This document shows positions 169-44,739 of a stretch of 64,000 nt of DNA, piece by piece. How positions within the stretch are numbered: position 1 is the stretch's first letter; each line of letters begins with the position of its first letter. The position numbers and the translations under genes are program-made. The stretch comes from an uncultured bacterium. Lineage in GTDB: Bacteria > Patescibacteriota > Minisyncoccia > UBA6257 > 2-01-FULL-56-20. Location of the stretch: the NCBI GenBank assembly GCA_963844965.1, contig CAWJQC010000004.1, positions 128,001 through 192,000 on the forward strand. Reading direction: 5' to 3'. Below the pieces are notes generated by a model. That model saw nothing but the letters and a program-made list of their open reading frames with translations, was not told the origin of the DNA and did no database searches.

Positions 169-489
169 TTATTTGATTTGCTTTATCATCTGTACAAATT
201 TCCGACCTTTCTTCGTTAATCGGTATTCCACGAACGTGCTTTCTTTGGAGCTTTCGATAATGCCTCCGTCGGCCAAATCCTTGAGATGATGGGAGAGGAG
301 GGTTTGCGACAATCCCGTATGCGTTTCGAGGTCGCAGACGCAATGAGGGGCTTTATACAAAAGCGAGAGCATGGCGATTCTGCTTGGGGCGGAAACGAGC
401 TTCATCTGCTCCGCCACGGGGTTGAACTCCGCGAGGTCAACCTTATCGTGAGGCCGTACCTTGCATACACACCGCTTATATATGAACAT
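169..489 (-). CDS. ArsR/SmtB-family HTH transcriptional regulator
   Basis: 106 aa; metal-site/HTH signature CVCDLETHTGLSQTLLSHHLKDL typical of ArsR/SmtB. Confidence 0.75.
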   Translation of the reverse strand: MFIYKRCVCKVRPHDKVDLAEFNPVAEQMKLVSAPSRIAMLSLLYKAPHCVCDLETHTGLSQTLLSHHLKDLADGGIIESSKESTFVEYRLTKKGRKFVQMIKQIK

Positions 490-555: not shown

Positions 556-1000
556 TTTGGGGGAGGAATTTGGGCGCGCCATACGCGAAGCCCCGAAGCC
601 CGAACAACAGTGAGCGGCTGAGGGGCTGAGCACAGACCCGTTTAGGGGTATTGTCGGGGGTCAGGATTTTTGAGAAAAGCGAGGTCTCGTAAGGGCGGAA
701 TGGCCGTCAGGGTAGTCAATCGTGATTGACGGGGTGATTGACTAGGCAAACCGGAGTGAAGTAGGACTTCTGGTTTTGTCCGGCGAGAGTCAAAAAGCCC
801 AGCGTTTTCAGGGCAATCAGGACTTGCTACCCCTTCATTCCGAGCATACCCGAATGAAGGGGTGAATGAAGGGGTAAATCCGGTGGCTAATCCCTCGGAT
901 TTTCGATAAAATAGGTTCGTACAGCGTTCAGCAACTGCGACAATAAATAAAAACGGCGAGGTAAACTCGTCGCCTTTAGGTCCCACTTTAGACGTCCCGG
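556..1000. repeat. divergent third copy of the ~330-bp element that forms the inverted repeats of the mobile island (32395-32720, 37650-37995); non-coding
   Basis: Shared blocks with IR-R in the same orientation: gaggggc..aggggtattgtcggggg..gaaaagcgaggtc..gggtagtcaatcgtgattgacgggg vs cgaggggcgaagggg..ggaggtattgtcggggg..gaaaggtccgaggcg..ggggtagtcgttctggaacgacccc; several local hairpins; the only ORF is an implausible antisense frame. Confidence 0.45.
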
Positions 1001-30191: not shown

Positions 30192-30977
30192 TTAAAGCTG
30201 ATATTTTCGCTTAAACCTTTTTATCGCCTCTCTAGCGCCAGGCAAAGCTGTGGTGTTGTACAACTTACTTAGGTTGTCAAGAAAACTCGGACCAAATGAT
30301 TCCTCAAATAATTTAACAACGTCCTGGTTTTCAAGCGTCTCCCCGTTCAATAAAGCCTGCACCAATGCCTCCCAACACACGCGCTCGCTCTGCTGATTCT
30401 TAGTTGCCAACCTCTTTACCATGGCATTGACTAAAGAAACTTCTAGGTTATAGGAAAATCCTTGATCGCTTGCGACTGCCGTTTTGTATGCACTTACCCG
30501 ATCCTCGGGCCATCTTGATCGCTCTGCGTAAGCCACGGTGATTTCCCTGGAGAGCTTTTCCACTACGCCCTCGTTAAGCGCATCGAACAAGCAGCCGAAA
30601 TTACTGTTGCGGTATATGCTGCTGACTCGGCCCGACCTTCGGAAGTTGATGCCTTCTTCGCCCAACTTTCGAAACAGGCCGGATTGTTTATAGTCTACGT
30701 ATTCTTCGGTTCTTCGATCTGGGTGTTCGTAGGTATTCCACATACAGATATTTCGACTTACTGCATGCGTTTCCTCGTGTGCCAGCACAGCAAGCTGTAT
30801 TAACTCTGCCCCTCCGCATTTTTCAAGTTTCGCTTTTGCTGACTTCCGCCTTTTCGGATCCAAGTCAGAATAATCATCAACACGGCTAAGCACAATGACG
30901 TTGTTTTCCGGATTGTAGCTATGACCTGGACCCGCTATTTTAGACACAAAGGTCGAAACCAAGTACCATTGTGTCAT
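30192..30977 (-). CDS. HExxH-motif putative metallopeptidase-like protein
   Basis: AVLAHEETHAV zinc-binding motif; start trimmed to MTQWYLV because the upstream part of the ORF is antisense to the recombinase. Confidence 0.5.
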   Translation of the reverse strand: MTQWYLVSTFVSKIAGPGHSYNPENNVIVLSRVDDYSDLDPKRRKSAKAKLEKCGGAELIQLAVLAHEETHAVSRNICMWNTYEHPDRRTEEYVDYKQSGLFRKLGEEGINFRRSGRVSSIYRNSNFGCLFDALNEGVVEKLSREITVAYAERSRWPEDRVSAYKTAVASDQGFSYNLEVSLVNAMVKRLATKNQQSERVCWEALVQALLNGETLENQDVVKLFEESFGPSFLDNLSKLYNTTALPGAREAIKRFKRKYQL

Positions 30978-32394
30978 GACTAACAAAAAGGGGCATCGTA
31001 TCCCCATGCTCCGCCGCATTGAGCGGGGCGAGGCGCAGGGTATCATCTGTTGGAAACTAGATCGAGTGGCACGCAATATGCAGGACGGCGGAAAGACCAT
31101 TGAACTCCTTAAACAAGGAGTGATCCAACATATTCGTGCCTTCGCAAGCAGTTACTATCCGCAAGACAACGTGCTCCTCATGTGCATAGAGTTCGGCATA
31201 GCTGACCAATATGTTCGCGATTTAAGTGCTAACACTTCGCGCGGATTGAGATACAAAGCAAGCTTGGGTATCTACCCCGGCCTCGCCCCGTTCGGATATA
31301 TAAACGATCCACAGACCAAGACCGTTATCGTAAACCGCAAGAACGCAAAGCTCGTCAAAAAAACTTTTGAGATTTACGCGACGGGCAAAGTCCGCCTTGA
31401 AAATCTTGCCGATCTTTGGGAGAAGGCGGGCGTCATGTCTAAAGGCAACCGTCGCGTCCATATTTCAAGAATGTCTTTCATTCTGCAAAATCCTTTCTAC
31501 TACGGACACTTTCGTTATTGCGGCGAGATACACGAAGGCAAGCATGAGCCAATCATTACGAAAGACCTCTACGATAAAGCGAACGCTGTCCTGCGAAGCC
31601 GAGGCCGTGTGCCGGACATTAAGAACGACCCAAGCCCTTACTGCGGCCTCCTGCGGTGCGGCGAGTGCGGTATGGGTATTACGGCCGAGGACAAGACAAA
31701 GCACCAAAAGAACGGCAACGTCCACCACTACGTTTATTACCGTTGTACCCGCAAATCGAAGACGCACAAGTGCCACGAAGCACCCGTGCGGAGCGAGATA
31801 CTGGATCGGCAGTTGTCGGCTCTTATCGCCGACTACGCCATGCCCAAAGAGTGGGTAGCCCCTTTGTCGGCTATGCTCGACCAAGAGGCCATAAACGCCA
31901 AACAGACGGCGTCGGTGGCCGTTCAAGAGTTGCGGGAGCAGGTGCAAGACCTTACCCGCGACCTCGCCAGACTTACCGATGTCTATGTTGCACAAGACAT
32001 AGAGCGAGATGACTACCTTGAGAGGCGTCGTTCGCTCATGTCGGAAAAGAAGTCCGTCGAGGAGCAAATAGCCCGTCTTGAACGAACCCCCTCCGCGTGG
32101 ATTGAACCTGCCCGAAGTTGGATTCGGGACGCTTCAATACTGGACGAAACAGCAAAAAACTTCGACCTCCCCTCCAAAAAACTCTCCCTCCAAAAAATCT
32201 TCGGATTGAACCTCTTTCTTAAAAACCGTCGTATCGAATTTAACCCCATCAAACCTTACGCTTCGCTCCGCGAAGCGCGCGTAAATTTTTCTGAAACTGA
32301 CTTACCTTTGAAACTGGAGCGGGTAACGGGAATCGAACCCGTGTGTCAACCTTGGCTCCGTCACCATAAGAAGGACTGCTTGCTTTTTCCGTGA
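30976..32394 (+). pseudogene. large serine recombinase lacking the N-terminal catalytic-serine segment (truncated paralog of the 43135 gene)
   Basis: Aligns to the intact paralog from GEAQGIICWKLDRVARN onward (zinc ribbon CGECGM..YYRCTRKSK, coiled coil, C-terminal ERVTGIEP); no YARKST.D..Q active-site region upstream; the 3' end is a degenerate tRNA-3'-half-like sequence. Confidence 0.7.
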
Positions 32395-32720
32395 GTGTAT
32401 TTACAACACCGCTTGGACTTATTTTAACAAAAAACTCTGACTTTGGCGAGGCCGGAAGGGGTCGTTGAGGGGGTCGTTCCAGAACGACTACCTTTTGAAT
32501 TGAAAATACTCGGCGAGCACTGGCTTCTCTGCCTCTCGCGGAGTTTTTTCTTACCCCCGACAATACCTCCTTTGAGGAGGTTGAAGGTTGCCCCTTCGCC
32601 CCTCGCCTGCTGGCTCGGGGCTCGGGGCTTATATTGTTGTGGGCTGGATGCGCTAATTTTCCTCGGCTCCGCTCTCCTTGGCCGAGTTGAAAAACACGAA
32701 CCGCAGTTGATGCGCGCGGG
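32395..32720. repeat. ~330-bp element, left inverted-repeat copy (IR-L), starting at the recombinase stop codon
   Basis: Reverse complement matches 37650-37995 at roughly 85% identity (e.g. cccccgacaatacctcc / ggaggtattgtcggggg). Confidence 0.8.
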
Positions 32721-32800
32721 TGGGAGAGAAACTTTGAGCCAAGGAGGAGCGGAGGCCTCGGAAAATCGGCCTCTTACTGATATAATGAATATATAATGCT

Positions 32801-33673
32801 ATGCCGAAACATACCAGCAAAAAATTTGTCAGAAGCCCAGACAATGGCGGCCGATTGCGCATCCAGCCCAGCGACGTCGCGCTCCTCCGCGATTTGTCGG
32901 AATATCGTTTCCTGAACACCGAGCAGGTTTTGGCCCTGCACCACCGAGGTTTGCGCAACCTCCAACGCCGCTTGCACGATTTGTACCACGCGGGGTATCT
33001 TGAACGCCCTCCCCAGCAGAACATCTCCGCTCTGCCGAAAGGTCATATCGTTTACGGCTTGGGGGCGAAGGGTGCGGAGCTTCTTTATGAAAATCGGGAG
33101 GAGCGCGCCGAAAAACTCCGGCAAGTGAAGCTGAACCGCGAGACAACGTTTCCCTACATCGCCCACGCTTTGATGATTTCCCAGTTCCGCGCGGCCTTGA
33201 CACTGGCGGCGGAAAAAACCGGAGGGAAGATGAAAGTTGCGAGATGGCGACAGGGCTTTGAATTGAAAAACTATTTGAAGCTCCGCGGCGGAACTCCCGA
33301 ACTCATGCCGGACGCGTTTTTCGCGATTGAACAGGGCGACAGACGCTGGAACTTGTTTTTGGAAACCGACCGCTCCACGATGACACTTGACCGGTTTTTG
33401 GTAAAGCTCAAAACATACTGGAAATGGTGGTGGGAGGAAAAATACAAAGAACAGCTCGGCATCTCGCACTTCCGCGTGCTTACCATAACCATTTCCGAAG
33501 AACGGAAGGAGAACCTTCTCCGCGTCGCCAAAAACGCCGACCCGAGAAGGCAAGGGAGCAACATGTTTTTGTTTATTTCCGAAAAAGAGTTTTCGCTGAA
33601 GAAGCCGGAGGCGGTGTTGTCTCCGGTGTGGCTTTCGCCGAGAGACGGATTGAAACATTCGTTTCTTGAATAA
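32801..33673 (+). CDS. replication-relaxation family protein (plasmid/ICE-type)
   Basis: 290 aa; N-terminal wHTH (LLRDLSEYRFLNTEQVLAL) and core PDAFFAIEQGDRRWNLFLETDRSTMTLDRFLVKLKTYWKWW typical of that family. Confidence 0.7.
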   Translation: MPKHTSKKFVRSPDNGGRLRIQPSDVALLRDLSEYRFLNTEQVLALHHRGLRNLQRRLHDLYHAGYLERPPQQNISALPKGHIVYGLGAKGAELLYENREERAEKLRQVKLNRETTFPYIAHALMISQFRAALTLAAEKTGGKMKVARWRQGFELKNYLKLRGGTPELMPDAFFAIEQGDRRWNLFLETDRSTMTLDRFLVKLKTYWKWWWEEKYKEQLGISHFRVLTITISEERKENLLRVAKNADPRRQGSNMFLFISEKEFSLKKPEAVLSPVWLSPRDGLKHSFLE

Positions 33674-33733
33674 ATTAGCGGCGGCCACGAGGTCGAAGCG
33701 GCCGCCAGTTTTTTAAAAAGTTCCCTATACTTT

Positions 33734-34492
33734 ATGCCGCATACGCCGACGACAACGACAATAATCGTGGGCGCGCTCATGGTCATCGCCACCGCGCTTT
33801 TTTGCGTCGCGGCTTATTTTGTCATCAAATACGCGCTCCGCTTCGTCGGAAAAATGTTCAGCTTCGTAAACGAGGTGGCAAACATCGTCAGGGAAAGGAA
33901 AGACCGGTATCTTGTTGGGCCGGTTTGGGGATGGGACATACAAGACCGGATAGAAGAATGGGACAAGCCGGACGAGGAGTGGTCGGTTATGGTCGAAGGA
34001 GCGGCGGGATACGGCGAAGAATTTTTGGAGCGCGTCGCTCGCCGCGCGCTTGACGAAAACATTCCCCGGCTTGTGGTGAGAAAGCGGATTGTCTGGCCGT
34101 ATCTGCGCCGAAAATGGCAACCGGTTCTTGTGATAACCAACAAGAAAATAAAGGGCTATCAAATGCTGATTGACGCGACAGACTACACCGACCGCCTTGA
34201 TGTTTGGTGGCGAGTTGATAAAGGCGACCGCGACCAACTGCCCTTGAGAGGGGCGGAAATACGGGAAAAGAGATTCGGGCTCGATTCGTCGGGCGTTCTT
34301 GAAGCCCAAGCCCAACAAGAGAAAAACTGGGTATTTCCCGAACAGATGACCGCTCTCGACAAGCAGGAGTGGGACAACTGCACTGGTTTGGTGCGCGATA
34401 TTGTCAGAGCCGAGGTAAAACGGATGGCGGACGAAGTTCGTATCGGCGGCGGCGTGGCTGGCGGCGCGAAGGGATTTATTGACATCAACTAA
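33734..34492 (+). CDS. membrane-anchored hypothetical protein, 14-nt overlap with the downstream T4CP-like ATPase
   Basis: N-terminal TM helix IIVGALMVIATALFCVAAYFVI; translationally coupled to the next gene. Confidence 0.55.
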   Translation: MPHTPTTTTIIVGALMVIATALFCVAAYFVIKYALRFVGKMFSFVNEVANIVRERKDRYLVGPVWGWDIQDRIEEWDKPDEEWSVMVEGAAGYGEEFLERVARRALDENIPRLVVRKRIVWPYLRRKWQPVLVITNKKIKGYQMLIDATDYTDRLDVWWRVDKGDRDQLPLRGAEIREKRFGLDSSGVLEAQAQQEKNWVFPEQMTALDKQEWDNCTGLVRDIVRAEVKRMADEVRIGGGVAGGAKGFIDIN

Positions 34493-36071
34493 CTATGAAA
34501 AACGGATTTTTAAAAACAATTTTGGACTGGATACTGGACTGGCGTTATCCGCTCCCGCCCCCGCCGGAGCCGGACTTGCCTCTTTTTCCGAGCAGTCGGA
34601 GGAACCGATGGCGGACAAATTCAAACTGCCGAGGCCCAACGAGCTTGTTCTCGGCAGTACGACAACCAAAGGGCCGGACGGCAAGGCAGAAGGCAAGACA
34701 AAGGGCGTGTCGCAGGACGACCGCTCGACCCATTTTTACGTGGTGGGAGCGACCGGCACGGGCAAGACGAAATTTTTGGAAACCCTAATCTTGCAGGACG
34801 CGATGAACGCGCACGGCTTTGGCATCGTGGACGCGCAGGGCGATTTGACGGAAGACATCAAGAGCTATCTTTTCATTCTTACCTTCCCAAACGAACCGGA
34901 GGAAACCGCCGAATTTGAAAAAGATTCGGAAAAAGCCCTCAAAAAAATTAAAAGATTTTTGAGCGAACGCGTCGTGCTGATAGACCCGTCCGACAGGGAA
35001 AGAACTGTTTGCTTTAATCCGCTTGAAAAAGTGGAGGGGCTTTCGCCCGCCGGAATCGCGAGCGAAGCAGTGGAGGCGTTCAAGAAAATCTGGCATGACG
35101 CTTGGGGCGCGAGAATGGAAGACCTGCTCAAAAATTCTCTGATAGCCCTCGTCGAGAACGACCTCACCCTCGCCGAACTTCCCCTGTTTCTTTCCGACAT
35201 CGGGGCGAGAAAAAAGATTCTGAAAAAAGTCATCCATCCCGTCTGCCGCCAGTATTTTGAAAAGTTCAATTCTTTGAGGTCGTCGTTGCAGGACGAGTGG
35301 GCGGAATCAACTCTGAACAAGGCCCGCGCCTTCATGTCCAACGACCACGTGCGGCAGATGCTCTCGGCGGTTAAAAGCACTTTCAACTTCCGCGACATAA
35401 TGGACGACCGGAAAATTCTGCTGGTGAAGCTGAATCGCGGAAAATTGAAGGGCGACGCCGACCTGCTCGGCTCTTTGCTTCTCTCCAAAATCCAGATGGC
35501 CGCCTTTTCTCGGACGGACGTTCCGCAATCCGAACGCGTGCCGTTTTATCTTTACATCGATGAGTTTCAGAATTTTGCGACCGAGAGTTTTATCCAAACG
35601 CTCGCCGAAGCGAGAAAGTATGGCCTGTCGATTACGCTGGCTCATCAGAATCTCGCCCAGCTACCGCCGTCCCTGCGGGCGTCGATACTCTCCAACTGCG
35701 GCTTGCAGGCGTACTTCCGCATCTCGCGCGACGACGCGAACATGCTAGCTAGGGAATCTCTCGCTTCCGTTTACGAAGAGCCGCCCGGCTGGGAGTTTTA
35801 CGTCCGCTCGCTTCAAGAACTGCCGAGGCGCGAGTGCGTGATAAAACATAAAATCGCGGGAGGCGTGATTGCCGTCCACACCATCGGACTGCCTACCCCT
35901 TGGGAATGGGCGAAGATGGACGAAAAGAAATTCTCGGAGGGACTGGCCGCGATGAATACCGGCGGCGCGTACATGCGCAAGCGCGAGGACATAGAGAAAG
36001 AATATCGGTCGAGGCAAGAGGCCCTCCGATTTATGGACGAGCCGGAGAGTTTCTGGGAGCGGAAGGTTTAA
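34479..36071 (+). CDS. VirD4/TraG/TraD-like type IV coupling-protein-type ATPase (soluble domain only)
   Basis: Walker A VVGATGTGKTKF; Walker B YLYIDEFQNFATE; ARKYGLSITLAHQNLAQL motif characteristic of T4CP/TraD-like ATPases. Confidence 0.65.
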   Translation: MTSTNYEKRIFKNNFGLDTGLALSAPAPAGAGLASFSEQSEEPMADKFKLPRPNELVLGSTTTKGPDGKAEGKTKGVSQDDRSTHFYVVGATGTGKTKFLETLILQDAMNAHGFGIVDAQGDLTEDIKSYLFILTFPNEPEETAEFEKDSEKALKKIKRFLSERVVLIDPSDRERTVCFNPLEKVEGLSPAGIASEAVEAFKKIWHDAWGARMEDLLKNSLIALVENDLTLAELPLFLSDIGARKKILKKVIHPVCRQYFEKFNSLRSSLQDEWAESTLNKARAFMSNDHVRQMLSAVKSTFNFRDIMDDRKILLVKLNRGKLKGDADLLGSLLLSKIQMAAFSRTDVPQSERVPFYLYIDEFQNFATESFIQTLAEARKYGLSITLAHQNLAQLPPSLRASILSNCGLQAYFRISRDDANMLARESLASVYEEPPGWEFYVRSLQELPRRECVIKHKIAGGVIAVHTIGLPTPWEWAKMDEKKFSEGLAAMNTGGAYMRKREDIEKEYRSRQEALRFMDEPESFWERKV

Positions 36072-36081
36072 CCGCGCCTAT

Positions 36082-36111
36082 TTGACAAACCGGACTTGAA
36101 AATGGTATCTT
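36082..36111 (+). promoter_or_regulatory. candidate sigma-70 promoter
   Basis: TTGACA (36082-36087), 18-nt spacer, TATCTT (36106-36111). Confidence 0.3.
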
Positions 36112-36267
36112 CTCCCCAGTTTCATTACCCCCGCCGTCCGCGCTAAAGCGGTGCGGCGGGAAAGCGGAACGCGAGGGAGATCGCGCTCTCGCCCGTTCCC
36201 TTGGATGGCTCCTCCTCGAACCGCCGAGAAGAAGGAATGAAACTTTTTCATAATAAAGAGTACAATA

Positions 36268-36300
36268 AAAGGACGTCACGGGACGTCCTTTTATTTTTTT
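36268..36300 (+). terminator. rho-independent terminator
   Basis: aaaggacgtc-acgg-gacgtcctt followed by ttattttttt. Confidence 0.5.
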
Positions 36301-36354
36301 GAACTGGAACATCTCGCAACCGAAATAGAGCCGCTCGGCAAAACCACCTTCCAC

Positions 36355-37597
36355 GAGAAGGGCGTTTTATTCGGCATCAGGCCCAAAGACCGCCGCCATC
36401 ATATGTACGTTATCGGGCAGACCGGCACCGGCAAGTCCACGCTCTTGAAGAATATGGTGATACAGGACTTGCGGTTCGGCCACGGGGTGCGCGGTCATTG
36501 ATCCCCACGGCGAACTGGTGGAAGACATTTTGAACTTCGTGCCGCGCTCGCCGCACGAACGAGGTCGTGTATTTCAATCCGGCGGACACGGAAAACCCCA
36601 TCGGCTTGAATATCCTTGAAGCCCGCGACGAGAACGAAAAACAGCTCGTCGCTTCGTCGCTCATCTCGGTATTCAAGCATTTGTGGAAAGGGTTTTGGGG
36701 TCCGCGGCTTGAGCACGTTTTCCATAACGCCATACTTGCTTTGATGGACACGCCGGGCAGTACCTTGCTCGGCATTTACCGGATGCTCGCGGACGACGAA
36801 TACCGGCAGCAAGTCGTCGGCGCAGGTCAAAGACCCCGTCGTGAGATTGTTTTGGAAGGAGGATTTTGAGAAGTATCCGCCGCAACTTCAAAAAAGAAGT
36901 CGCCTCGCCGATTCAGAACAAAATCGGCCAGCTTCTCACGAGCACGCCCTTGCGAAACATCGTCGGCCAGTCCCGGAGCACGATTGATCTGCGCTTCATT
37001 ATGGACAACCAGAGAATTTTCCTTGTGAACCTCGCCAAAGGCACGGATCGGCGAGGACAAGGCAAATCTGCTCGGCTCGGTGCTCGTTACGAAGCTGTAC
37101 CTTGCCGCGCTTGAACGGCAGGACATGCCGGAGGAGGAACGCAAGGATTTTTATCTGTACATTGACGAGTTTCAGAACTTCTCCACGGACGTTTTCCCGT
37201 CTATCTTGTCGGAAGCCAGAAAATATCGGCTTGAACCTCATTCTCGCCCATCAATATCTTATATCAGCTTTCGGAGAGCGTGAAGCACTCGGTTTTCGGC
37301 AACGTCGGCACGCTCGCGTCTTTTCGCGTCGGAAGCATCGACGCGCGCGAACTGGCCGAGGAGTTCAGCCCGACTTTCACCAAAGAAGACCTGGAACACA
37401 CCGAAAACTATCACGCCTACCTCAAGCTGATGATAGACGGGAAGCGATCCACTCCTTTTTCCGCCGAAACGCTCCCGCCTCTCGCCCATCAGGGCGACGA
37501 GGCGCAGAAAGAAACGCTCATTAGAGTTTCACGGGAGCGTTTCGCGTCAAAGCGAGAGGACATGACGGAGAAAATCGAAAAATGGTTTTCAAAGTAA
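36355..37597 (+). pseudogene. degenerate T4CP-like ATPase paralog with at least five frame disruptions
   Basis: Consecutive frames give MYVIGQTGTGKSTLLKNMVIQDL / VYFNPADTENPIGLNILEARDE..FWGPRLEHV / KEVASPIQNKIGQLLTS..DLRFIMDNQRIFLVNLAKG / DFYLYIDEFQNFSTDVFPSILSEARKY / SVFGNVGTLASFRVGSIDAREL..; collinear with the 34479 gene. Confidence 0.7.
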
Positions 37598-37649
37598 ACC
37601 ATTTTTCATGTTTTTTTTCCTCGGCCTTGCGGCCTGAGCGGATTTTCTT

Positions 37650-37995
37650 TTTTTGTTTTCCTTCCCACCCGCGCGTAGAATACGATTCGGTTTTTTCAAC
37701 TCGGCCAAGGAGAGCGGAGCCGAGGAAATACGCTAGAGACAGCCCAGCATACAATAGTAAGTCCCGAGCCCCGAGCAGCAGCGAGGGGCGAAGGGGCAAA
37801 CCTTCACCCTCCCAAAAGGAGGTATTGTCGGGGGTGTCGAAAGGTCCGAGGCGGAGCGAAGAAGCCAATATCAGCGGAGTAATTTCAATTCACGGGGTAG
37901 TCGTTCTGGAACGACCCCCTCAACGACTCCTTCGGGCCTCGCCAAAGTCAGAGATTTTGGTTAAAATAAGTCCAAGCGGTGTTGTAAATACACTC
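37650..37995. repeat. ~330-bp element, right inverted-repeat copy (IR-R)
   Basis: Reverse complement of IR-L; outer end ...gtaaatacactcc abuts the recombinase-3'-end duplicate. Confidence 0.8.
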
Positions 37996-38140
37996 CATAA
38001 CACAACTTAAAGGTTTTTTATTCACCGAACAATGGGCTTCCACAATGGAAGCCCATTGTTTTTCCGCAAAACCGCGCGCTTCGCGCGCGTGGAGTGTCAG
38101 GTTCAATCCGAAAATTTTTTGAGCGAACGATTTTTTGAGG
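37996..38140 (-). repeat. near-identical duplicate of the last ~140 nt of the 43135 recombinase gene (att-like junction with IR-R)
   Basis: Reverse complement matches 44515-44650, then switches at gttatg|gag into IR sequence instead of tRNA-Gly. Confidence 0.75.
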
Positions 38141-38244
38141 GGTAAGGGGGTCGCAGATAAAGATATAATGCTTGCCCCGCCCTTCCCGTGCGCGCATTAT
38201 GTATTTTTGCCGATTTTGAAATCGGCAACTCCCTTATAACGATT

Positions 38245-40950
38245 TTACCTTTTCAGACCATATTTCTGTTCTCGTTTCTGGAAAGCTTCTGTGCCGCCCT
38301 CAAGAACGTCATAGATTGTCTTCCGCATCTCTATATTCTCTAACGAACCTTGTAGGGCATTAACCTTACTTTTATCATCAACGGATAAAGCAGTTATCAA
38401 TTCTGAATCGCCCAAGACAACGATATTGGCGTTATGGGTGCAAATAATTATCTGCCTGTTCACTTTTTGCTCTCTAACCAAAGTTACTACCTTCTCTGCT
38501 ACGAATTTTGCGTCAAGGTGATCCTCCGGCTGGTCAATGATAAGTGGATGGTCGCCAGACAACAATATAAGTTCCACCAAAGTGCCGCATCGCTCGCCGA
38601 ACGACATACTATCTTTGCCGAGTATTTTAGTTCCATATTTAATGTGATTTTCTCCGGTTTCCGCATATTCATCTAGCCGCATTATTAGGTCTTCTCTAAT
38701 AATTTGAGTATTCGGGTCTTCAAAAAACCACCGCAGAGTTTCTGTCTTTCCGCTACTATCTTGTAATTTTGGTATTCTATTTTCTTTAATAGTGGAAATT
38801 ATCTTTTCCCTTGCGACATCACCAGTAGCTTTGCCGACAAGTTCGTTTATTACATCTTTAACGTAATCCTCTCTGACGGGAGATTTTATCTTAAAATTCT
38901 TTTCAATGACACCCTTTAACTCGTCGTTTGATTGGAGGAACTGCTCCTTTATCCACGGAGCAATATCACCACTTGGATCGTCCCATACGGCAGTGATTGT
39001 TGTATCCTTAAAAGATTCGTTGAACCCGCCAATAAGTTTTTGGTTTTCCTTTATCCAGAGTTTTAGTTTTGCCGCCAGTTGATTCACGAGTTGGCTGTGT
39101 TGTTTCTTATCGCCTTCAAACTTTTTTAGGCGATTTTCAAGTTGCGATGATTGCTGGTCAATAAACTTAATTCTGTTGTTTCGCTTTTCTACCTCACTCT
39201 TTGTTATAGTAACGCCGTTTAGCTTACAGTAATCGGTAAACTGCTTTGTAAGTTCTGCGCTTTCTCTATCCAGTTCTTTTTTTACATCGGATTCTCTTAC
39301 TTCCTTTACTGCTCCTTCTAAATTCTTAACTACGGAATCCAGTTGAGATTCTTTTAGGTTATAAAAATCTTCAATTTTTTTCTTTAGCGCATTTTTCTCC
39401 GCAAAAAGTTCTAAAACTTTATCTTTATCAACAGTAGTAGAAAGTTTAAGTTGCCCTGCGAATTTTTTAATGAGGACGGCTTGGGCTTCAATATCTTGGA
39501 TCAAGCCATCAATCAACTGGCGTTTGGCTCTATTGCTTTTAATTTTTTCGGCAAGGTCTTTATATTCTTTTGTTTTTAACTTCTTAAAGTAAGATTCAAT
39601 TTGTTCTCGTTCCGCTTCAAGTTTCTTTTTGTCTATTTCTACTTGGAGTTTATCGGCGTAACTGTTACGGGTAGTTTCCATTTCTACAGCCAACGCCTCT
39701 ATTTCCTCTTTTGTCTTAATGAGTAGATCGGAATGAAGACGGCCTCCTATGTAATCCGCTATCTGTTTTGGGCTATCGGCTTTTTTCTCAATTTCTCCTT
39801 GTGTCCAGTATTCAACTTGAAAGGACGAAGTATAAAATGGGTCATTCCACTCTTTGACTTGACGCTTTAGAGATACTGGGTCTTCTGCTCCACTTTGAAA
39901 GATAACCTCAACTTCAAGATTGGGGAACTCCCTACTCAAAAATTCAATTAAGGAAAGTTTTTTGTCGCCTTTATCGGATGAAAACTTGTTAGCTACATAT
40001 CCAATCAATTCTGCTAAAGCGGTCTTTCCGGCGGCTCGTGGCCCGATAACCGTGGTTAAATTCGGACTAAAAAACAGTTCTTGATTTAGAGTAATTGGTG
40101 GAAATATACTTCTCTTTGATTGATAACTTTGATGATTTAGCAATTTTGCGGATACAATCTGCGGATGAAGATAAAGTGGCGGACTATCATCAAGACAAAC
40201 TCTAATAACTGGCTCATAAATAATTTGTTTCAAACCTTCAAATGTTGGATCGGCCTTAATCCAACTATACTTCTTACCAATTACTTCCGTTGAGTGGCCG
40301 CTTTTGTATTGAAGTTTTGATCTATCGCAAGCGTCGGAAGTAATAATACACGGAAACTCCTGTTTAATCTTTGGGAACACTATTTTTCTGTAATCCTCAA
40401 CCTGTTTTATGGCCGATACTTCAAAAATATCAACCAAAAACGCTAAATCTTTTTTTAGTGTCGCACGGACATCACTATCCAATTGTTCTATCCCGTTGGA
40501 CTTGTTACCCGCGTGGAGTAAAACAAGCCCGTCTAACTCGTGTATTTTTTGACACGCGTCTTCAAAGTTACAGTAAATCTCCTTATCCCCCTTACCCTTA
40601 ATATCGTTTTCCGAAAAATTAAGAGGGCAGAGTAATTTATCGTAAATAGTTTTTGAAGTAGTGGAAGAATCAAAAACTCCGATAATATGTATCCCTTTAT
40701 TGCCCTTATCGGTGCGCAGTTCAACGCCGGGGAGAATTGTTATATCTTTTCCTTTAGCAGCTTTTAGAACCTCGTCAATTCCTTTAACGGTATGGTGGTC
40801 TGTAATAGCAATAACAGATATATTTTCTGTTATTGCCTTTTTCACTATGTCTTCCGCTTTGTCTTTACAGCCACTATCCCAATCATAAGAAGACGGGGTA
40901 TGAACGTGCAAATCCCACTTTCTCCAAATTGAACCGCGGGGTGAATTCAT
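38245..40950 (-). CDS. PHP-domain phosphoesterase fused to an SMC/SbcC-like ABC ATPase with a long coiled-coil insert (901 aa)
   Basis: PHP motifs WDLHVHTPSSYD and VIAITDHH; Walker A GPRAAGKT; ~350-aa coiled coil; signature-like MSFGERCGTLVELIL; Walker B LIIDQPEDHLD; H-loop IICTHNANI; start codon 6 nt after the MTase stop. Confidence 0.75.
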   Translation of the reverse strand: MNSPRGSIWRKWDLHVHTPSSYDWDSGCKDKAEDIVKKAITENISVIAITDHHTVKGIDEVLKAAKGKDITILPGVELRTDKGNKGIHIIGVFDSSTTSKTIYDKLLCPLNFSENDIKGKGDKEIYCNFEDACQKIHELDGLVLLHAGNKSNGIEQLDSDVRATLKKDLAFLVDIFEVSAIKQVEDYRKIVFPKIKQEFPCIITSDACDRSKLQYKSGHSTEVIGKKYSWIKADPTFEGLKQIIYEPVIRVCLDDSPPLYLHPQIVSAKLLNHQSYQSKRSIFPPITLNQELFFSPNLTTVIGPRAAGKTALAELIGYVANKFSSDKGDKKLSLIEFLSREFPNLEVEVIFQSGAEDPVSLKRQVKEWNDPFYTSSFQVEYWTQGEIEKKADSPKQIADYIGGRLHSDLLIKTKEEIEALAVEMETTRNSYADKLQVEIDKKKLEAEREQIESYFKKLKTKEYKDLAEKIKSNRAKRQLIDGLIQDIEAQAVLIKKFAGQLKLSTTVDKDKVLELFAEKNALKKKIEDFYNLKESQLDSVVKNLEGAVKEVRESDVKKELDRESAELTKQFTDYCKLNGVTITKSEVEKRNNRIKFIDQQSSQLENRLKKFEGDKKQHSQLVNQLAAKLKLWIKENQKLIGGFNESFKDTTITAVWDDPSGDIAPWIKEQFLQSNDELKGVIEKNFKIKSPVREDYVKDVINELVGKATGDVAREKIISTIKENRIPKLQDSSGKTETLRWFFEDPNTQIIREDLIMRLDEYAETGENHIKYGTKILGKDSMSFGERCGTLVELILLSGDHPLIIDQPEDHLDAKFVAEKVVTLVREQKVNRQIIICTHNANIVVLGDSELITALSVDDKSKVNALQGSLENIEMRKTIYDVLEGGTEAFQKREQKYGLKR

Positions 40951-40956
40951 AAATTA

Positions 40957-42072
40957 TTACCTTTGTTTCAAAAACTCGTACTCAATCTTTGAAAATAAAT
41001 TACTGGGTAAGTTAGACAATCTTTTTTTAGCAACCTTGATGGCCTGTTCTGATTTATCAATACCAATCCAATGTCGGCCAAGCTCTTGGGCGGCAACGAG
41101 GGTTGTCCCAGAGCCGCAAAAACAATCAAGAACTAAATCGTCTTTATTTGACGAAGCTTCAATAATAAACTTTAACAAGTCCAAACTTTTTTCTGTTGGA
41201 TAATTGGGATACTGCGGGTCTTTAAATTCCCAAATATCCTGCATTTTCTTCCCTGTTCTCTCATCGAGGAAAATTTTTTTGCGTGGTACTCCGCTTGCCG
41301 ACCATTCAATAAGTCCTTGCTTATCCCATTCTTCTAAAATAGCCGGATTAGTTCGCCAATGGCGTCCTTTTGGTGGTTTTTGCCCTCGCCACTCCTTACT
41401 TGTATTCCCGTTTGATGTTTCTCCGGGTGCGTGGAGTGGGATTGTTGTATATCGCCGTCCGTCTTTATCAACTTTCTTAAACAAGCGATCCTCGTCTTCC
41501 TCGGAGAATGAAACGTGTGGATCATTCCAAATCGGGTTTTCTGATTTGGAGTAAAAAAGTATCAAATCCTTGATATTGCCGTAGGCCTTACGATGAAAAT
41601 TTTTCGGGTTACACTTAATGCGAGTAATATCGTTACGAAAACTTTTGCGACCAAAAACTTCATCCATTATAAGTTTCACATAGTGGCCGATTTTATAATC
41701 AATGTGAAGGTAAATTGACCCACGCTCGGATAGAAGTTCGCGCAAAAAAATCAGGCGTTCGCGTAGAAATTCTAAAAATTCCGCACCAATTAACGTATCG
41801 CTATATGCAATCTCATCGCTATTGCTACTACTGATTGTATTGGCACGCCCCTCGCTTATTTTGAAATGGCCATTGGTTGCAAATGGTGGATCAATATAAA
41901 TCAAATCAACCTTACCCCCATAATTATCAAGTAACGTTTTGAGAGTGGAAAGATTATCGCCATGAACAAGTTTATTTTTTGCCCCTTTGCCGGAAAGCAC
42001 TTTCAAGTTAGCTCTTGGAGTGCTTTCAAGAATTTCACGCTCACCCTTTTTGCTTTCATAACTAAGAAGCAT
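40957..42072 (-). CDS. beta-class DNA methyltransferase (N6-adenine or N4-cytosine)
   Basis: Motif IV LIYIDPPF precedes motif I VLDCFCGSGTT (beta-class order). Confidence 0.8.
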   Translation of the reverse strand: MLLSYESKKGEREILESTPRANLKVLSGKGAKNKLVHGDNLSTLKTLLDNYGGKVDLIYIDPPFATNGHFKISEGRANTISSSNSDEIAYSDTLIGAEFLEFLRERLIFLRELLSERGSIYLHIDYKIGHYVKLIMDEVFGRKSFRNDITRIKCNPKNFHRKAYGNIKDLILFYSKSENPIWNDPHVSFSEEDEDRLFKKVDKDGRRYTTIPLHAPGETSNGNTSKEWRGQKPPKGRHWRTNPAILEEWDKQGLIEWSASGVPRKKIFLDERTGKKMQDIWEFKDPQYPNYPTEKSLDLLKFIIEASSNKDDLVLDCFCGSGTTLVAAQELGRHWIGIDKSEQAIKVAKKRLSNLPSNLFSKIEYEFLKQR

Positions 42073-42078
42073 ATAAAA

Positions 42079-42861
42079 TTATATTTGATATAAGAATTCG
42101 CGCAGGACGAGTGCGCTCATAATATTCTCGTCCTTTAACTCGCCAGCGACCGCTTTATACATTTTGTTGTTGCCCTTGATATAAAGTACCCCATCTAAAA
42201 TGGCCACCTTAACCGCTTTAACACCCTTCGCTTTGATAGTGGCGATTGCGTCGTTAAATTGAGCATTTTGATGACCCCCAAAATCGGTTAAAAATTTTGC
42301 CTCTCCAATAACATACTTCCCGTTAAAACGCCCTATCAAATCAAGTCCTTTGTTATGATTGTAGTTCAAGTATTTTTTAGCAAAGGCCATCGTTTCCGCA
42401 TCTCCCGCATCAAGAACTGCGTTTCCTTTTGCCACTAAAAATTCCGACATCTTCAGCGGTTGCACTCCGAGAGTTTTTCTATTCAGCCAGCGGCGGAAAA
42501 GTGGGCCAATTTGTCGGTTTGTTTCTTTTGGCTCTGATGAACGAGAGAAAATTTGCTTAAGACCCATCTCATACAATCGGCCACATAGACGAGCAACCGT
42601 CGCCGGATTGCGCTTTAATGCTTCTTTGTCGCGCTTAAGATAAGCAATGTAGGAATCTTTAATAGGAAATAAATCAAGCTTCAAAAGATTTTCAAGAAGC
42701 GCAACATTGTTCCTTTTTTCAAACGCCTGTTCTACGTTTTTCCAAAGCGCCTTGTTAATGTCGCGAATTCCCTCTGGAATTGTTGGATATACTTGAAACA
42801 AATCATCGAGGTAGCTTCGCTGATTTGCGTAATCAATACTTAATTTTGTCCAATGGTTCAT
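42079..42861 (-). CDS. putative type II restriction endonuclease (PD-(D/E)xK-like)
   Basis: 260 aa between the C-protein and MTase genes; GLDLIGRFNGKYVIGEAKF fits a D...E-x-K motif; no other recognisable motifs. Confidence 0.55.
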   Translation of the reverse strand: MNHWTKLSIDYANQRSYLDDLFQVYPTIPEGIRDINKALWKNVEQAFEKRNNVALLENLLKLDLFPIKDSYIAYLKRDKEALKRNPATVARLCGRLYEMGLKQIFSRSSEPKETNRQIGPLFRRWLNRKTLGVQPLKMSEFLVAKGNAVLDAGDAETMAFAKKYLNYNHNKGLDLIGRFNGKYVIGEAKFLTDFGGHQNAQFNDAIATIKAKGVKAVKVAILDGVLYIKGNNKMYKAVAGELKDENIMSALVLREFLYQI

Positions 42862-42865
42862 GGTT

Positions 42866-43078
42866 TTATTTTATTAAGTCATCAACTGCGACATTTAGGG
42901 CTTTGGCTATTTTCGCCAAAGTTTCTATTGTCGGATTCTTATTAACACCCGATTCAATTTTAATCATGGTGTTATAGGTAACATCCGCCAATTTGGACAA
43001 ACGATCTTGTGAAATGCCGAGTTTACTACGGTATTTTTTGATATTCTCGGCAATCCTTGATTTGTTGCTTGCTCCCAT
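42866..43078 (-). CDS. XRE-family HTH controller (C) protein of the R-M operon
   Basis: 70 aa; KKYRSKLGISQDRLSKLADVTYNTMIKIESGVNKNPTIETLAKIAKAL; first gene of the operon, 4 nt before the REase. Confidence 0.7.
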   Translation of the reverse strand: MGASNKSRIAENIKKYRSKLGISQDRLSKLADVTYNTMIKIESGVNKNPTIETLAKIAKALNVAVDDLIK

Positions 43079-43134
43079 AGTAATATAGTAGTATGATTGA
43101 ACTAATAGCGAGTGATTTTGTTTAATCTATTACT
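43079..43134. promoter_or_regulatory. divergent control region between the C-protein gene and the recombinase gene; contains inverted repeats (candidate C-box)
   Basis: ccatagtaata...tattactatgg 11-bp inverted repeat spanning the 56-bp intergenic region. Confidence 0.35.
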
Positions 43135-44739
43135 ATGGTATCAAAAAATACACCGCACGTAAATACCTATTTTCTCTACGCCCGCAAATCCACCGACGTT
43201 GAAGACAAGCAAGTCCGGTCTATTGAGGACCAGCTTGCCGTATTGCGGGCGTTGGCCAAAGGCGAAGGACTAACTATCGCCAGAGAGTTTATTGAGCGGC
43301 AATCGGCCAAGAAGCCGGGCCGCCCCGCTTTTAACGAAATGCTCGCCTTGATTGAAAAAGGCGAAGCGCAAGGAATCCTCTGTTGGAAACTTGACCGCTT
43401 GGCTCGCAATCCGGTTGATAGCGGCCGCATATCTTGGCTCTTACAGCAGGGCGTTATCCGGCACATCCAAACGCACGACCGAAGCTTTTATCCTACGGAC
43501 AATGTTTTGATGACGAGCGTAGAGTTCGGGATGGCGAACCAGTTTATCCTTGATTTGAAAGTGAACACCAAACGCGGCCTTGACGCCAAAGCCAAGCGCG
43601 GCGACTATCCGGGCCATGCTCCCATCGGCTACATCAACGACACCCGCGTAAAGCTCGTGGCCGTTGATAAAAGGAAATCCAAAATTATCAGGCGCGCGTT
43701 TGAACTCTACGCCGAGGGCAACTGGCGTTTGGAAGACGCCGCCAAATTCCTTTTGGAGAACGGTATTAAAACGAAAGGCGACAAACCCTTGTCGCGCGAC
43801 CGAATCTCTTATCTCTTGACCAATCCTTTTTATTACGGCAATTTCCGCTACAACGGGGAACTTTACGAAGGCAATCACGAGCCGATAATTACGAAGCAAC
43901 TTTTTGACAAAGTTCAGGCGGCGTTGAAAGCGCGAAGCAAGCCGCCCTCAAGTCCCGCCAATCACCCGCAAGCTCTTTGCGGGGCTATCCGGTGCGGCAC
44001 TTGCGGCATGATGATAACCGCCGAGCGTAAGATAAAACACCAGAAAAACGGCAATGTCCACGAATACACTTATTATCGTTGTACCCGCAAGAACAAAGCG
44101 ATCCGGTGCTCCGAGCCGCCTATCCGCGAGGACGCGCTTAATCGGCAGTTATCGAACCTTATCAAAAAGTATGCTTTGCCGGACGATTGGGCGGCGGAGC
44201 TATTAAAAATGTCCGAGCGGGACGAACAGGAAGCCGCCCAATCAACGACCGCCCTCGTCCGAGAGGCGCGGGACGAGATACAGGCCATTTCTCAAAAACT
44301 CCAACGCCTTCTTGACGCATATCTTGACCAAGATATTGAGCGGGAAAGCTACCGCTTCGAGAAGGCAAACCTTCTCTCCCGCAAGAAGTCGTTGGAGGAG
44401 AAAATCGGCAATTTGGAGCAAGGGGCGATTGCTTGGGTTGAACCCCTGCGCGATTGGATAAAAGACGCTCAAACGCTGAACGAAATGACGGAAACGACCC
44501 CCTTACCCCTCAAAAAATCGTTCGCTCAAAAAATTTTCGGATTGAACCTGACACTCCACGCGCGCGAAGCGCGCGGTTTTGCGGAAAAACAATGGGCTTC
44601 CATTGTGGAAGCCCATTGTTCGGTGAATAAAAAACCTTTAAGTTGTGTTATGGAGCGGGCGAAGGGAATCGAACCCTCGTCTATAGCTTGGGAAGCTATC
44701 GTACTGCCACTGTACTACGCCCGCAAGATAGCCCACTAA
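43135..44739 (+). CDS. large serine recombinase (integrase), intact; 3' end overlaps tRNA-Gly in antisense
   Basis: 534 aa; catalytic N-domain YARKSTDVEDKQVRSIEDQ, recombinase domain, zinc ribbon CGTCGM..YYRCTRKNK, coiled coil; last ~30 codons are antisense to tRNA-Gly. Confidence 0.85.
   Translation: MVSKNTPHVNTYFLYARKSTDVEDKQVRSIEDQLAVLRALAKGEGLTIAREFIERQSAKKPGRPAFNEMLALIEKGEAQGILCWKLDRLARNPVDSGRISWLLQQGVIRHIQTHDRSFYPTDNVLMTSVEFGMANQFILDLKVNTKRGLDAKAKRGDYPGHAPIGYINDTRVKLVAVDKRKSKIIRRAFELYAEGNWRLEDAAKFLLENGIKTKGDKPLSRDRISYLLTNPFYYGNFRYNGELYEGNHEPIITKQLFDKVQAALKARSKPPSSPANHPQALCGAIRCGTCGMMITAERKIKHQKNGNVHEYTYYRCTRKNKAIRCSEPPIREDALNRQLSNLIKKYALPDDWAAELLKMSERDEQEAAQSTTALVREARDEIQAISQKLQRLLDAYLDQDIERESYRFEKANLLSRKKSLEEKIGNLEQGAIAWVEPLRDWIKDAQTLNEMTETTPLPLKKSFAQKIFGLNLTLHAREARGFAEKQWASIVEAHCSVNKKPLSCVMERAKGIEPSSIAWEAIVLPLYYARKIAH
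44651..44724 (-). tRNA. tRNA-Gly (anticodon CCC)
   Basis: 74 nt: GCGGGCG-TA-GTAC-AGTGGCA-GTAC-G-ATAGC-TTCCCAA-GCTAT-AGAC-GAGGG-TTCGATT-CCCTT-CGCCCGC-T-CCA; perfect acceptor stem; CCA encoded. Confidence 0.85.

Follow-up and report, generated by a model that had tools for sequence, protein, structure and literature searches.

The 64,000-nt stretch of contig CAWJQC010000004.1 analyzed here, called the window below, comes from an uncultured member of the Patescibacteria. At 32393-37995, it carries two 339-nt inverted repeats (IR-L and IR-R) that bracket four genes. In order, these encode a Replic_Relax nuclease (RR), a single-pass membrane protein, a soluble ATPase (ATPase-1) that resembles type IV coupling proteins (T4CPs), and a frameshifted second ATPase (ATPase-2). 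A first-pass annotation, made by a model from the letters of the sequence, had taken the segment for an unusual, minimal two-protein module; it belongs instead to a large family of Patescibacteria units in which the architecture is fixed and the cargo varies.

The Pfam profile PF13814 (191 positions) aligns with RR over positions 1-179 at E=1.8e-25, and the score of 90.6 bits is above the cut-off of 25.3; the Replic_Relax gene of the first-pass annotation thus stands. In the AlphaFold2 (AF2) model (predicted local distance difference test score, pLDDT, of 88), an N-terminal MarR-like winged helix is followed by a C-terminal PD-(D/E)XK domain, and the putative active-site residues D171, E188, D190, K202, and Y206 are invariant among 28 RR sequences; the window copy has all five. 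Foldseek matches are weak and come in the expected order: MarR for the N-terminal ~100 residues (2e-3) and, for the rest, FokI (5e-3), Bse634I (7e-3), and XisH (5e-2). A winged helix and a PD-(D/E)XK domain are also present in the MOBC relaxase TraX, whose binding sites are direct repeats 70-120 bp away from nic and which works without a covalent DNA intermediate (PMC12857230). PF13814 has been equated with MobC of CONJscan (PMC5357655) and is annotated for both plasmid replication and relaxation (Table 1 of PMC3424549). The profile match and the predicted fold support the assignment of RR as a MOBC/Replic_Relax relaxase-type nuclease. Cluster representatives related to RR number 7,696 at E<=1e-3, 3,140 at 1e-10, and 485 at 1e-30; there are no relatives in IMG/VR, and a viral origin was therefore rejected.

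The membrane protein (252 aa) has one strong hydrophobic helix near its N terminus (residues ~9-27; mean hydropathy of 2.53 in a 19-aa window) and no family match in Pfam, NCBIfam, or PADLOC. A word-indexed homolog search found nothing but the query, and the protein is 31% identical to its counterpart in the related locus L094. Every examined locus having both RR and ATPase-1 has an open reading frame (ORF) between the two, adjacent to ATPase-1; most of these ORFs encode a predicted hydrophobic helix, N-terminal or central, and in about a dozen loci none rises above the threshold. The first-pass annotation recognized the transmembrane protein and had it overlap the ATPase gene by 14 nt. That overlap depends on a TTG start at 34479 without a clear Shine-Dalgarno sequence. 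The public gene call (P0001, 487 aa) starts instead at the ATG at 34608, which is preceded by GGAGG.

ATPase-1 scores above the cut-offs of the T4CP models in Pfam (TrwB_AAD_bind, 44.2 bits against 20.5; T4SS-DNA_transf, 41.9 against 20.1; TraG-D_C, 33.0 against 22) and below that of FtsK_SpoIIIE (20.5 against 24). A profile search of PDB sequences found DotL and TrwB only. When the AF2 model (pLDDT 82) was compared by Foldseek, the top 38 matches were Cag-beta and TrwB (1.7e-9 to 3e-7, with Cag-beta at 1.7e-9 and TrwB at ~1e-8); HerA appeared from 1.6e-6, and no FtsK was found among the top 50. The first-pass annotation had called this a VirD4/TraD-like ATPase lacking transmembrane helices and had named in advance an FtsK/HerA-type identity as what would speak against it. 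The best matches by both profile and fold are TrwB, Cag-beta, and DotL, and the protein has no hydrophobic segment (maximum 19-aa hydropathy, 1.29). With these proteins of solved structure, ATPase-1 has in common the nucleotide-binding domain and an all-alpha insertion (residues 147-266); unlike them, it lacks an N-terminal transmembrane domain, and identities are 14-16% with TM-scores of ~0.5. It seems reasonable to infer that ATPase-1 and the membrane protein together form a split coupling protein. The promoter-like site and the terminator that had been called downstream of ATPase-1 are both confirmed. About a third of the closest ATPase-1 homologs are ~660 aa long and carry a C-terminal AlbA_2/Schlafen-type (PF04326) putative DNA-binding domain (P0009, P0019, P0042, and others; L006 7909-9891), which the window copy lacks.

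The second ATPase was described at first pass as a five-fold frameshifted paralog of ATPase-1. It is indeed a pseudogene, with seven frame changes, all in one direction (2>3>1>2>3>1>2>3), and it is collinear with residues 8-429 of intact ATPase-2. Its identity to intact ATPase-2 is 55-75%, versus ~30% to the neighboring ATPase-1. Intact orthologs are found in L001, L006, L094, L114, L125, and L165, and the gene is broken also in L004 and L008. Judged by these identities, the supposed paralog is the ortholog of a distinct, conserved fourth gene that is dead here, and not a recent duplicate of ATPase-1. Its Walker A (GQTGTGKST) and DEFQNFSTD motifs can still be read. Frameshifts in a single direction fit recent, deletion-biased decay or a systematic sequencing error limited to the pseudogene; the sole independent short-read contig over this region stops ahead of the first frameshift. 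A scan of genome contigs with an ATPase alignment turned up mostly stand-alone genes of the ATPase-2 type (L013-L089; ~425 aa, 43-56% identical to the module copies), with no RR, anchor, ATPase-1, or repeats nearby. Their contigs are labeled mainly as Saccharibacteria and other Patescibacteria, with a few Gammaproteobacteria, Actinomycetota, Bdellovibrionales, Nitrospirota, and Chlamydiae; these loci served just as a negative control for the repeat.

The inverted repeats, reported at first pass as ~85% identical over 330 bp, are 83.6% identical over 347 aligned columns (blastn, E=7e-91). Elsewhere in the family, identity is usually 98-100%, versus 84% in the window. Family alignments show a common plan. 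The outer end starts with TGGAG or GTGAG across lineages and often forms a hairpin of 4-5 bp with a covarying stem (GTGT/ACAC, GCCTC/GAGGC, CCTC/GAGG, GAGT/ACTC), and next comes a conserved TCGNAC-N-ATTTTA-NC-AAA block. About 40-80 nt inward of the outer end, a 9-12-nt motif is present in two direct copies and one inverted copy; the innermost part consists of GC-rich conserved blocks finishing in TGCKCG..GGTGGG. The motif itself is lineage specific, being GGGGTCGTT in the window and TAGTCA, CCCCTTCAAT, CCCCTACAT, CCTAGTTATT, GGGTAGTCGT, or others elsewhere, and the direct-direct-inverted layout is kept in at least eight motif variants. By RNAalifold, compensatory changes are confined to the motif hairpin, and the extra direct copy covaries as well. 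This covariation is explained more easily by several sites for a single DNA-binding protein than by an RNA helix. Each motif type is paired with particular RR residues immediately ahead of the predicted recognition helix: GTCGTT goes with HHRGLRN, TAGTCA with H-x-GG-x-RN, and CCCCTTCA with H-E/D-GS-x-RN.

The first-pass annotation had suggested predicting the RNA structure of the repeat as a check. The window repeat does fold better than shuffled sequences, on both strands (z=-2.6 and -3.1), which points to DNA palindromes rather than a strand-specific RNA. The repeats lie outside the transcription units: the RR promoter separates one of them from RR, and the ATPase-2 terminator separates the other from ATPase-2. 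We read the repeats as DNA-level sites. Among other identities considered, a known RNA family was rejected (Rfam gave no match in the repeats at the gathering threshold, nor in the arms themselves at E<=5), as was a tRNA or a tRNA containing a group I intron (ARAGORN and Rfam were negative, and the terminal hairpin, whose likeness to a T-arm is speculative, is not in all lineages). A coding sequence was rejected too, the ORFs that cross both arms having just 12 residues in common.

Repeats and genes travel together. A profile built from 22 repeat sequences gave 67 matches in 1.9 Mb of DNA from all loci, 57 of them no more than 700 bp from a module gene; the remaining 10 mostly border reduced or cargo-expanded versions of the module. 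In 1.1 Mb around the stand-alone ATPase-2-type genes of other Patescibacteria, the negative control, there were 0 matches. The suggestion that the repeats are the ends of an element, tied to these genes and not ubiquitous, is thus borne out, while that of termini like those of miniature inverted-repeat transposable elements (MITEs) is not, with one solo copy and no transposase. The solo copy, divergent and 31 kb from the module at ~560-950 of the window, is the sole truly solitary repeat found. It has the layout of the module repeats, with two direct copies and one inverted copy of CCCCTTCATTC and then CCCCCGACAATACC; a hairpin like the ATPase-2 terminator follows and then an ArsR-family gene (169-489, minus strand). 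It may be what remains of a module that was lost.

ATPase-1 has more than 3,600 homologs, and those with a named source are from Patescibacteria or from unclassified "bacterium" metagenome-assembled genomes; the homologs listed are 55-77% identical to the window copy, and all related sequences are metagenomic. The assignment to Patescibacteria comes from how these homologs are annotated. Three of the listed homologs, on contigs of 635 kb, 181 kb, and 35 kb, share one gene order: Replic_Relax, a small protein, ATPase-1, zero to four variable genes, and a ~425-aa ATPase-2 (the HerA-like DUF87 plus TrwB_AAD_bind). The gene sets of L001, L004, and L006 have inverted repeats on both sides, 292-342 nt long and 99-100% complementary. 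Metagenomes scanned with a Replic_Relax alignment yielded many contigs broken within the repeats and further complete units in L114, L125, L132, and L165 (repeats of 285-307 nt, 99.7-100% identical); an identity of 100%, like module orientation, can be an artifact in short-read contigs, and values of 98.5-99.7% (L004, L006, L132) show two real, distinct copies. Inversion between the repeats, with the island end left or right of the module, was dropped as evidence, because the repeat is longer than k and orientation is not resolvable in short-read assemblies.

Family units are 6-11 kb long with ~300-nt terminal inverted repeats, often a second ATPase, and one or two slots for variable cargo. 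Distant lineages (L011, L158, L149; RR 40-45% identical) keep the repeats, RR, the small protein, and ATPase-1 and have no ATPase-2, and reduced RR-only units (L111, L120) still hold both repeats; the core is therefore the repeats, RR, the membrane protein, and ATPase-1. The related long contigs carrying the module are chromosomal (216-635 kb). Distribution among loci is patchy, and decay has recurred (window, L004, L008).

Cargo slots are placed either between the two ATPase genes or between IR-L and RR, and their content is highly variable. We saw DUF6119; ArdC-N with an S49 peptidase; S26; M10; Amidase_3; ArsP; ImpB/UmuC with SRAP; an FkbM methyltransferase; a TetR/GT2/radical SAM/NMO/acyltransferase set; and an AadA-like nucleotidyltransferase. 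Cargo of this kind is carried by mobile elements. When L011 is compared with L156, L152, and L141, the left repeat is 88-92% identical and the backbone from RR to the right repeat 92-95% identical at the nucleotide level, with 2-6 kb of unrelated DNA between IR-L and RR. The GC content of the module is 9-12 points under that of the left flank in L001 and L125. These observations, which do not include movement itself, agree with an element that moves or once moved and that has slots for cargo.

By a modest degree, we lean toward reading the segment as a partly decayed, chromosomally integrated DNA-mobilization element specific to Patescibacteria, comprising a MOBC relaxase, a split coupling protein, and two inverted ends that resemble an origin of transfer (oriT). 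The architecture of each repeat appears compatible with an oriT. Partial decay, which the first-pass annotation had also proposed, is seen in the dead ATPase-2 and in the divergence of the repeats to 84%; because of these and of its host-like composition, the window copy is old. RR, the anchor, and ATPase-1 are still intact in it, and it is probably immobile or only partly functional.

Table 1. Features of the module and of its surroundings in the window
Feature	Coordinates	Strand	Remarks
IR-L, left terminal inverted repeat	32393..32731	+	339 nt; 83.6% to IR-R; profile E=1.7e-37
IR-L terminal hairpin	32395-32409		GTGT/ACAC
IR-L direct repeats	32458-32466 and 32470-32478		GGGGTCGTT
IR-L inverted motif copy	32483-32492		AACGACTACC
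IR-L conserved blocks			CCCCCGACAATAC and TGCGCGCGGGTGGGA
RR promoter element	32775-32790		TATAAT; upstream of RR, outside the repeat
RR, Replic_Relax/MOBC-type nuclease	32801..33673	+	290 aa, intact; PF13814
Single-pass membrane protein	33734..34492	+	252 aa; presumed ATPase tether; fast-evolving
ATPase-1, soluble, T4CP-like	34608..36071	+	487 aa from ATG 34608; ORF open to TTG 34479
Promoter-like site	36082-36111		Downstream of ATPase-1
Intrinsic-terminator-like hairpin	36264..36295	+	After ATPase-1; 14-bp stem and T-run
ATPase-2 pseudogene	36322-37594	+	Conserved ~425-aa DUF87/TrwB_AAD_bind partner
Terminator hairpins	37577-37607 and ~37620-37645		Near pseudogene end
IR-R, right terminal inverted repeat	37657..37995	-	Block architecture as IR-L; profile E=3e-43
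Solo third copy of the IR type	~560-950	-	Divergent; profile 748-928, E=6e-28
recA, remnant of second large serine recombinase	30976..32394	+	49% identical to recB
tRNA-Gly 3'-half fragment	32315..32356	-	41-42 nt (acceptor, T-arm, to anticodon); read directly, not called by ARAGORN/Rfam
X element, end of serine-recombinase island	37996..38240	-	P' 37993-38153 plus Y 38154-38240; nhmmer E=4e-64
Island B	38245..44739		Cargo and integrase
TrlF-family PHP/AAA ATPase	38245-40950	-	NF045780, 469 bits against cut-off 350
N6/N4 DNA methylase	40957-42072	-	
Tsp45I restriction enzyme	42079-42861	-	
recB, large serine recombinase	43135-44739	+	Full length; P at 44495-44655
tRNA-Gly(CCC)	44651..44724	-	3' end is right junction of island B

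The surroundings of the module, absent from the first-pass annotation, include two serine recombinases, a tRNA-Gly with a tRNA fragment, and a perfect 161-nt inverted repeat. Both flanks are assembled in 10 loci, and in all 10 a recombinase island ends directly at one of the repeat ends; the distant lineage L149 shows the same juxtaposition. In the window, this island (37996-44650) adjoins IR-R, has the 161-nt perfect inverted repeats at its edges, and is joined to tRNA-Gly. One edge, P', is a 100% inverted copy of the other, P, which is the 3' end of recB with the tRNA terminator hairpin and stops precisely where tRNA-Gly(CCC) has its 3' end; the GC content of the island B cargo is 39%. On the other side of the module, recA lacks approximately its first 68 residues, including the catalytic-serine region, and its 3' end runs into the tRNA fragment and then IR-L. 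That fragment is a direct repeat of 44651-44691 (32 of 41 positions identical), and the pair brackets the module together with island B (12.3 kb) as the att repeats of a tRNA-integrated island would. The window module is thus part of a composite island at a tRNA-Gly locus. By its last bases, the tRNA fragment is GCC-type.

The X element is found next to one repeat, with position and orientation kept, in L001, L004, L006, L111, L114, L120, L125, and L165. Defense genes follow it in all loci with examined neighbors (L001, L006, L111, L120, and the window); they include DUF4411, M78, and HsdR; SIR2-HerA and ResIII; ThsB-TIR, ResIII, and a methylase; and Mrr. The order of P', cargo, and recombinase-P seen in the window is shared by L111 and L120, and L149 has it without cargo. 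The recombinase-P end abuts a tRNA 3' end or fragment in L120 and L101 and the module repeat directly in L132 and L149. The island junctions read ...ACACTCCA[TA]ACACAAC... and ...GTTGTGT[TA]TGGAGCGGG..., as one might expect if a serine integrase with a long palindromic attP had inserted between a repeat end and a tRNA end. The design looks like that of a family of serine-recombinase elements with long inverted ends, perhaps palindromic attP sites, that target both tRNA 3' ends and module repeat ends.

Within the X element, Y is a conserved, noncoding, structured segment of 87 nt on the minus strand, at the recombinase-distal end of the island, with counterparts in L001 (13230-13365), L006 (13900-14040), and L004 (11850-11980). 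It has a hairpin, TTGCCGAT/ATCGGCAA, and a covarying stem (ATAATGC/GCATTAT versus AACAC/GTGTT) around an invariant GCGCACGGGAAGGGYGGGGCAA. The recA and recB ORFs stay open across the tRNA terminator hairpin and ~90 nt antisense to the tRNA or its fragment, giving "...GIEP..." tails and uncertain C termini, and the DNA of the last ~55 recombinase codons is conserved where islands end in other genomes. A 302-aa ORF without a family match (30192-31100, minus strand) occupies the site of the missing recombinase N terminus; its first ~35 codons are antisense to the truncated recA 5' end, making the start doubtful. Farther away, and unrelated to the module, are a 996-aa ORF without a Pfam match that would encode a large surface-type protein (48459-51449) and a surface-type, 1174-aa DUF11-repeat protein with a peptidoglycan-binding domain (22146-25670, minus strand). 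Large surface-type proteins are typical of Patescibacteria.

How might a mobilization element of this kind work? We imagine that the winged helix of RR would bind the direct and inverted motif copies within each repeat and that RR would cut at the conserved outer end, 40-80 nt from the motifs, with each repeat acting as a MOBC-type oriT. Tethered by the membrane protein, one or both ATPases would form rings that work as a split coupling protein and pass the DNA to a type IV secretion channel whose genes lie elsewhere in the genome. Transfer itself, and the dependence on a helper that the first-pass annotation proposed, are what we would infer from such an arrangement. The serine-recombinase defense islands at the outer ends of the repeats could provide integration and excision and be mobilized in cis. 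Bidirectional transfer of the flanks, a panhandle of the transferred strand, or symmetric double-strand excision are candidate reasons for having two inverted ends. In its most ambitious form, which we hold to be tentative and rather doubtful, the proposal is that the repeat-bounded module is the missing relaxase and coupling-protein half of the Patescibacteria type IV secretion system (T4SS), a conjugative unit whose inverted oriT-like ends launch transfer both ways and mobilize the docked defense islands. If true, this would be a dedicated platform for defense-gene exchange in ultra-small bacteria.

Several points weigh against reading the segment as a mobilization element. All steps of the mechanism are inferred, and no transfer, nicking, or excised form has been observed. 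Two inverted oriT-like ends are unlike a classical mobilizable element, since the nic sites would lie on opposite strands and no site at which transfer would terminate is obvious. Neither an integrase nor a transposase is encoded in the module. There is no VirB4-type domain among the window ORFs of at least 600 aa (those below 600 aa were partly scanned), and the examined related loci show none either. The fold matches of RR are distant (E>=2e-3), and so is the T4CP match of ATPase-1, which reaches 50 bits with the NCBIfam model VirD4-like CD1115 against a cut-off of 250. The correlation between motif and RR residues may stem from common descent alone. Finally, the window, L004, L006, and L114, 4 of the 7 loci, have a module GC content equal to that of the host or flank, which fits a long-resident and possibly domesticated system.

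That last point leads to the view of the module as a domesticated chromosomal DNA-translocation system, whose nuclease, anchor, and ATPases would serve the cell itself, e.g., in DNA processing or pumping for uptake or export in an epibiotic lifestyle, with the repeats as regulatory or invertible boundaries that gene conversion keeps identical. The widespread ATPase-1 family (55-77% identity, >3600 matches), the 485 clusters of the RR subfamily at E<=1e-30, the large chromosomal contigs (216-635 kb), the host-like GC, and the ATPase-2-type genes standing alone in many genomes would all agree with it, and exaptation of T4CP genes is raised as a possibility in a passage of PMC12102498. Set against these are cargo of the mobile-element type that differs between near-identical backbones, the recurrent decay in the window, L004, and L008, the patchy distribution, the repeats kept by RR-only derivatives, and the GC contrast with the flank in L001 and L125; on this evidence, domestication seems to us unlikely. 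Mobility without conjugation is the essence of another proposal, a transposon with terminal inverted repeats in which the PD-(D/E)XK nuclease would cut both ends symmetrically, as TnsA-type enzymes do, and the ATPases would serve as target-selection or DNA-handling partners. Long, near-perfect terminal repeats with subterminal repeats resembling protein sites, minimal derivatives of RR plus repeats, sharp ends at which other elements abut, and the one solo repeat in the window are features one would expect of it. We nevertheless consider it quite improbable: there is no strand-transfer enzyme between the repeats, be it a DDE, HUH, or recombinase gene; target-site duplications are not visible, one end always abutting another element; the repeat is not dispersed, with 0 matches in 1.1 Mb; and a cytoplasmic transposition machine would not need ATPases that are T4CP-like and paired with a membrane protein.

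The annotation of the Pfam family for plasmid replication as well as relaxation (PMC3424549) raises the question of an integrated plasmid-like replicon, with the Replic_Relax protein as the replication initiator, the repeats as iteron-like origins, and the ATPases partitioning or transferring the episome; two direct and one inverted protein-site repeats beside an A/T-rich block do resemble iterons plus an operator. We give this little credence. No free circular or plasmid contigs of the module were found, the contigs with repeats at both ends being assembly breaks at the repeats, and all long contigs are chromosomal. IMG/VR has no relative, and PLSDB yielded one weak RR match (Bradyrhizobium) and ATPases 25-30% identical, with no shared module. 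Least credible of all is an antiplasmid or antiphage defense system, a nuclease with HerA/T4CP-like ATPases within a defense island. The module is always beside defense genes, and its ATPases weakly match PADLOC models, mad8 (best, 66 bits) and HerA. RR and the membrane protein, however, match no PADLOC model; coupling proteins outrank defense HerAs among the fold matches; the neighboring defense genes belong to a separate, recombinase-bounded island of different GC; and terminal repeats with internal cargo are foreign to defense operons.

As a mobilization element, the module finds its nearest parallel in MOBC mobilization regions, such as TraX/oriT2 of pAD1, with its TraG-like protein, and MobC/MobB of CloDF13. 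Like the module, these regions have a PD-(D/E)XK relaxase with an N-terminal winged helix and a T4CP-like ATPase of their own, and their mating channel is encoded elsewhere, as we propose for the module. Their origins combine an inverted-repeat region with short direct repeats for specificity, tens of nucleotides from the presumed cut, as the module repeats do. They differ in that the module has the origin-like sequence twice, as ~300-nt terminal inverted repeats around the genes, and a coupling protein split into a soluble ATPase and a small membrane protein, often with a second ATPase. The module is also chromosomal and in Patescibacteria, and the similarity is at the profile level, that Bradyrhizobium match being the only one by BLAST against PLSDB.

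Mobilizable transposons with large serine recombinases, e.g., Tn4451, offer a second comparison, and integrative mobilizable elements (IMEs) of Bacillota with a PF13814/MobC relaxase have been described (PMC5357655). Like the module and island together, such elements have a relaxase, sometimes their own coupling protein, a serine recombinase, and cargo, and they are chromosomal and, as we propose for the module, dependent on a helper channel. Unlike in them, the recombinase here is not within the repeat-bounded module but in an island of its own, which has inverted ends of 116-161 nt, and the module has long terminal inverted repeats instead of direct att repeats. The island recombinases, which are not part of the module, find their best NCBIfam matches in CcrB/CcrC of SCCmec and in XisF, with which they share Resolvase, Recombinase, and Zn_ribbon_recom domains. 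Their scores are far under the cut-offs (109 against 900 bits), and, unlike those proteins, their 3' ends lie within a long inverted terminal repeat that abuts tRNA 3' ends or module repeat ends.

Passages of PMC12102498 report 5,713 VirD4-type T4CP homologs in 2,918 Patescibacteria genomes, 148 of them near virB4; the relaxases reported include 58 of the MOBC type, and 39 relaxases have a T4CP gene nearby. There, the few Patescibacteria relaxases are read as sporadic acquisitions. These orphan VirD4-type homologs are the same proteins as the module ATPases. Inverted repeats are not mentioned in the main text of PMC12102498 by a term search, and its passages seen here contain no four-gene unit or abutting recombinase islands. 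Our literature search found no paper describing the repeat-bounded relaxase-anchor-ATPase-ATPase unit, which, judging from its genes and repeats, would be a variant of a MOBC-type mobilization module or IME not previously described.

Patescibacteria make up a large share of bacterial diversity and have tiny genomes and a near-universal T4SS of debated role. The window copy is a decayed example and serves mainly as an entry point to a family, a widespread unit that pairs a restriction-enzyme-like relaxase with orphan coupling-protein homologs and candidate origin-of-transfer sequences. The module may supply the DNA-processing parts that the secretion machines of these bacteria were thought to lack. 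That defense islands dock at defined sites beside it bears on the exchange of immunity genes among streamlined symbionts. With this unit in hand, conjugation in Patescibacteria, and what it moves, becomes directly testable.

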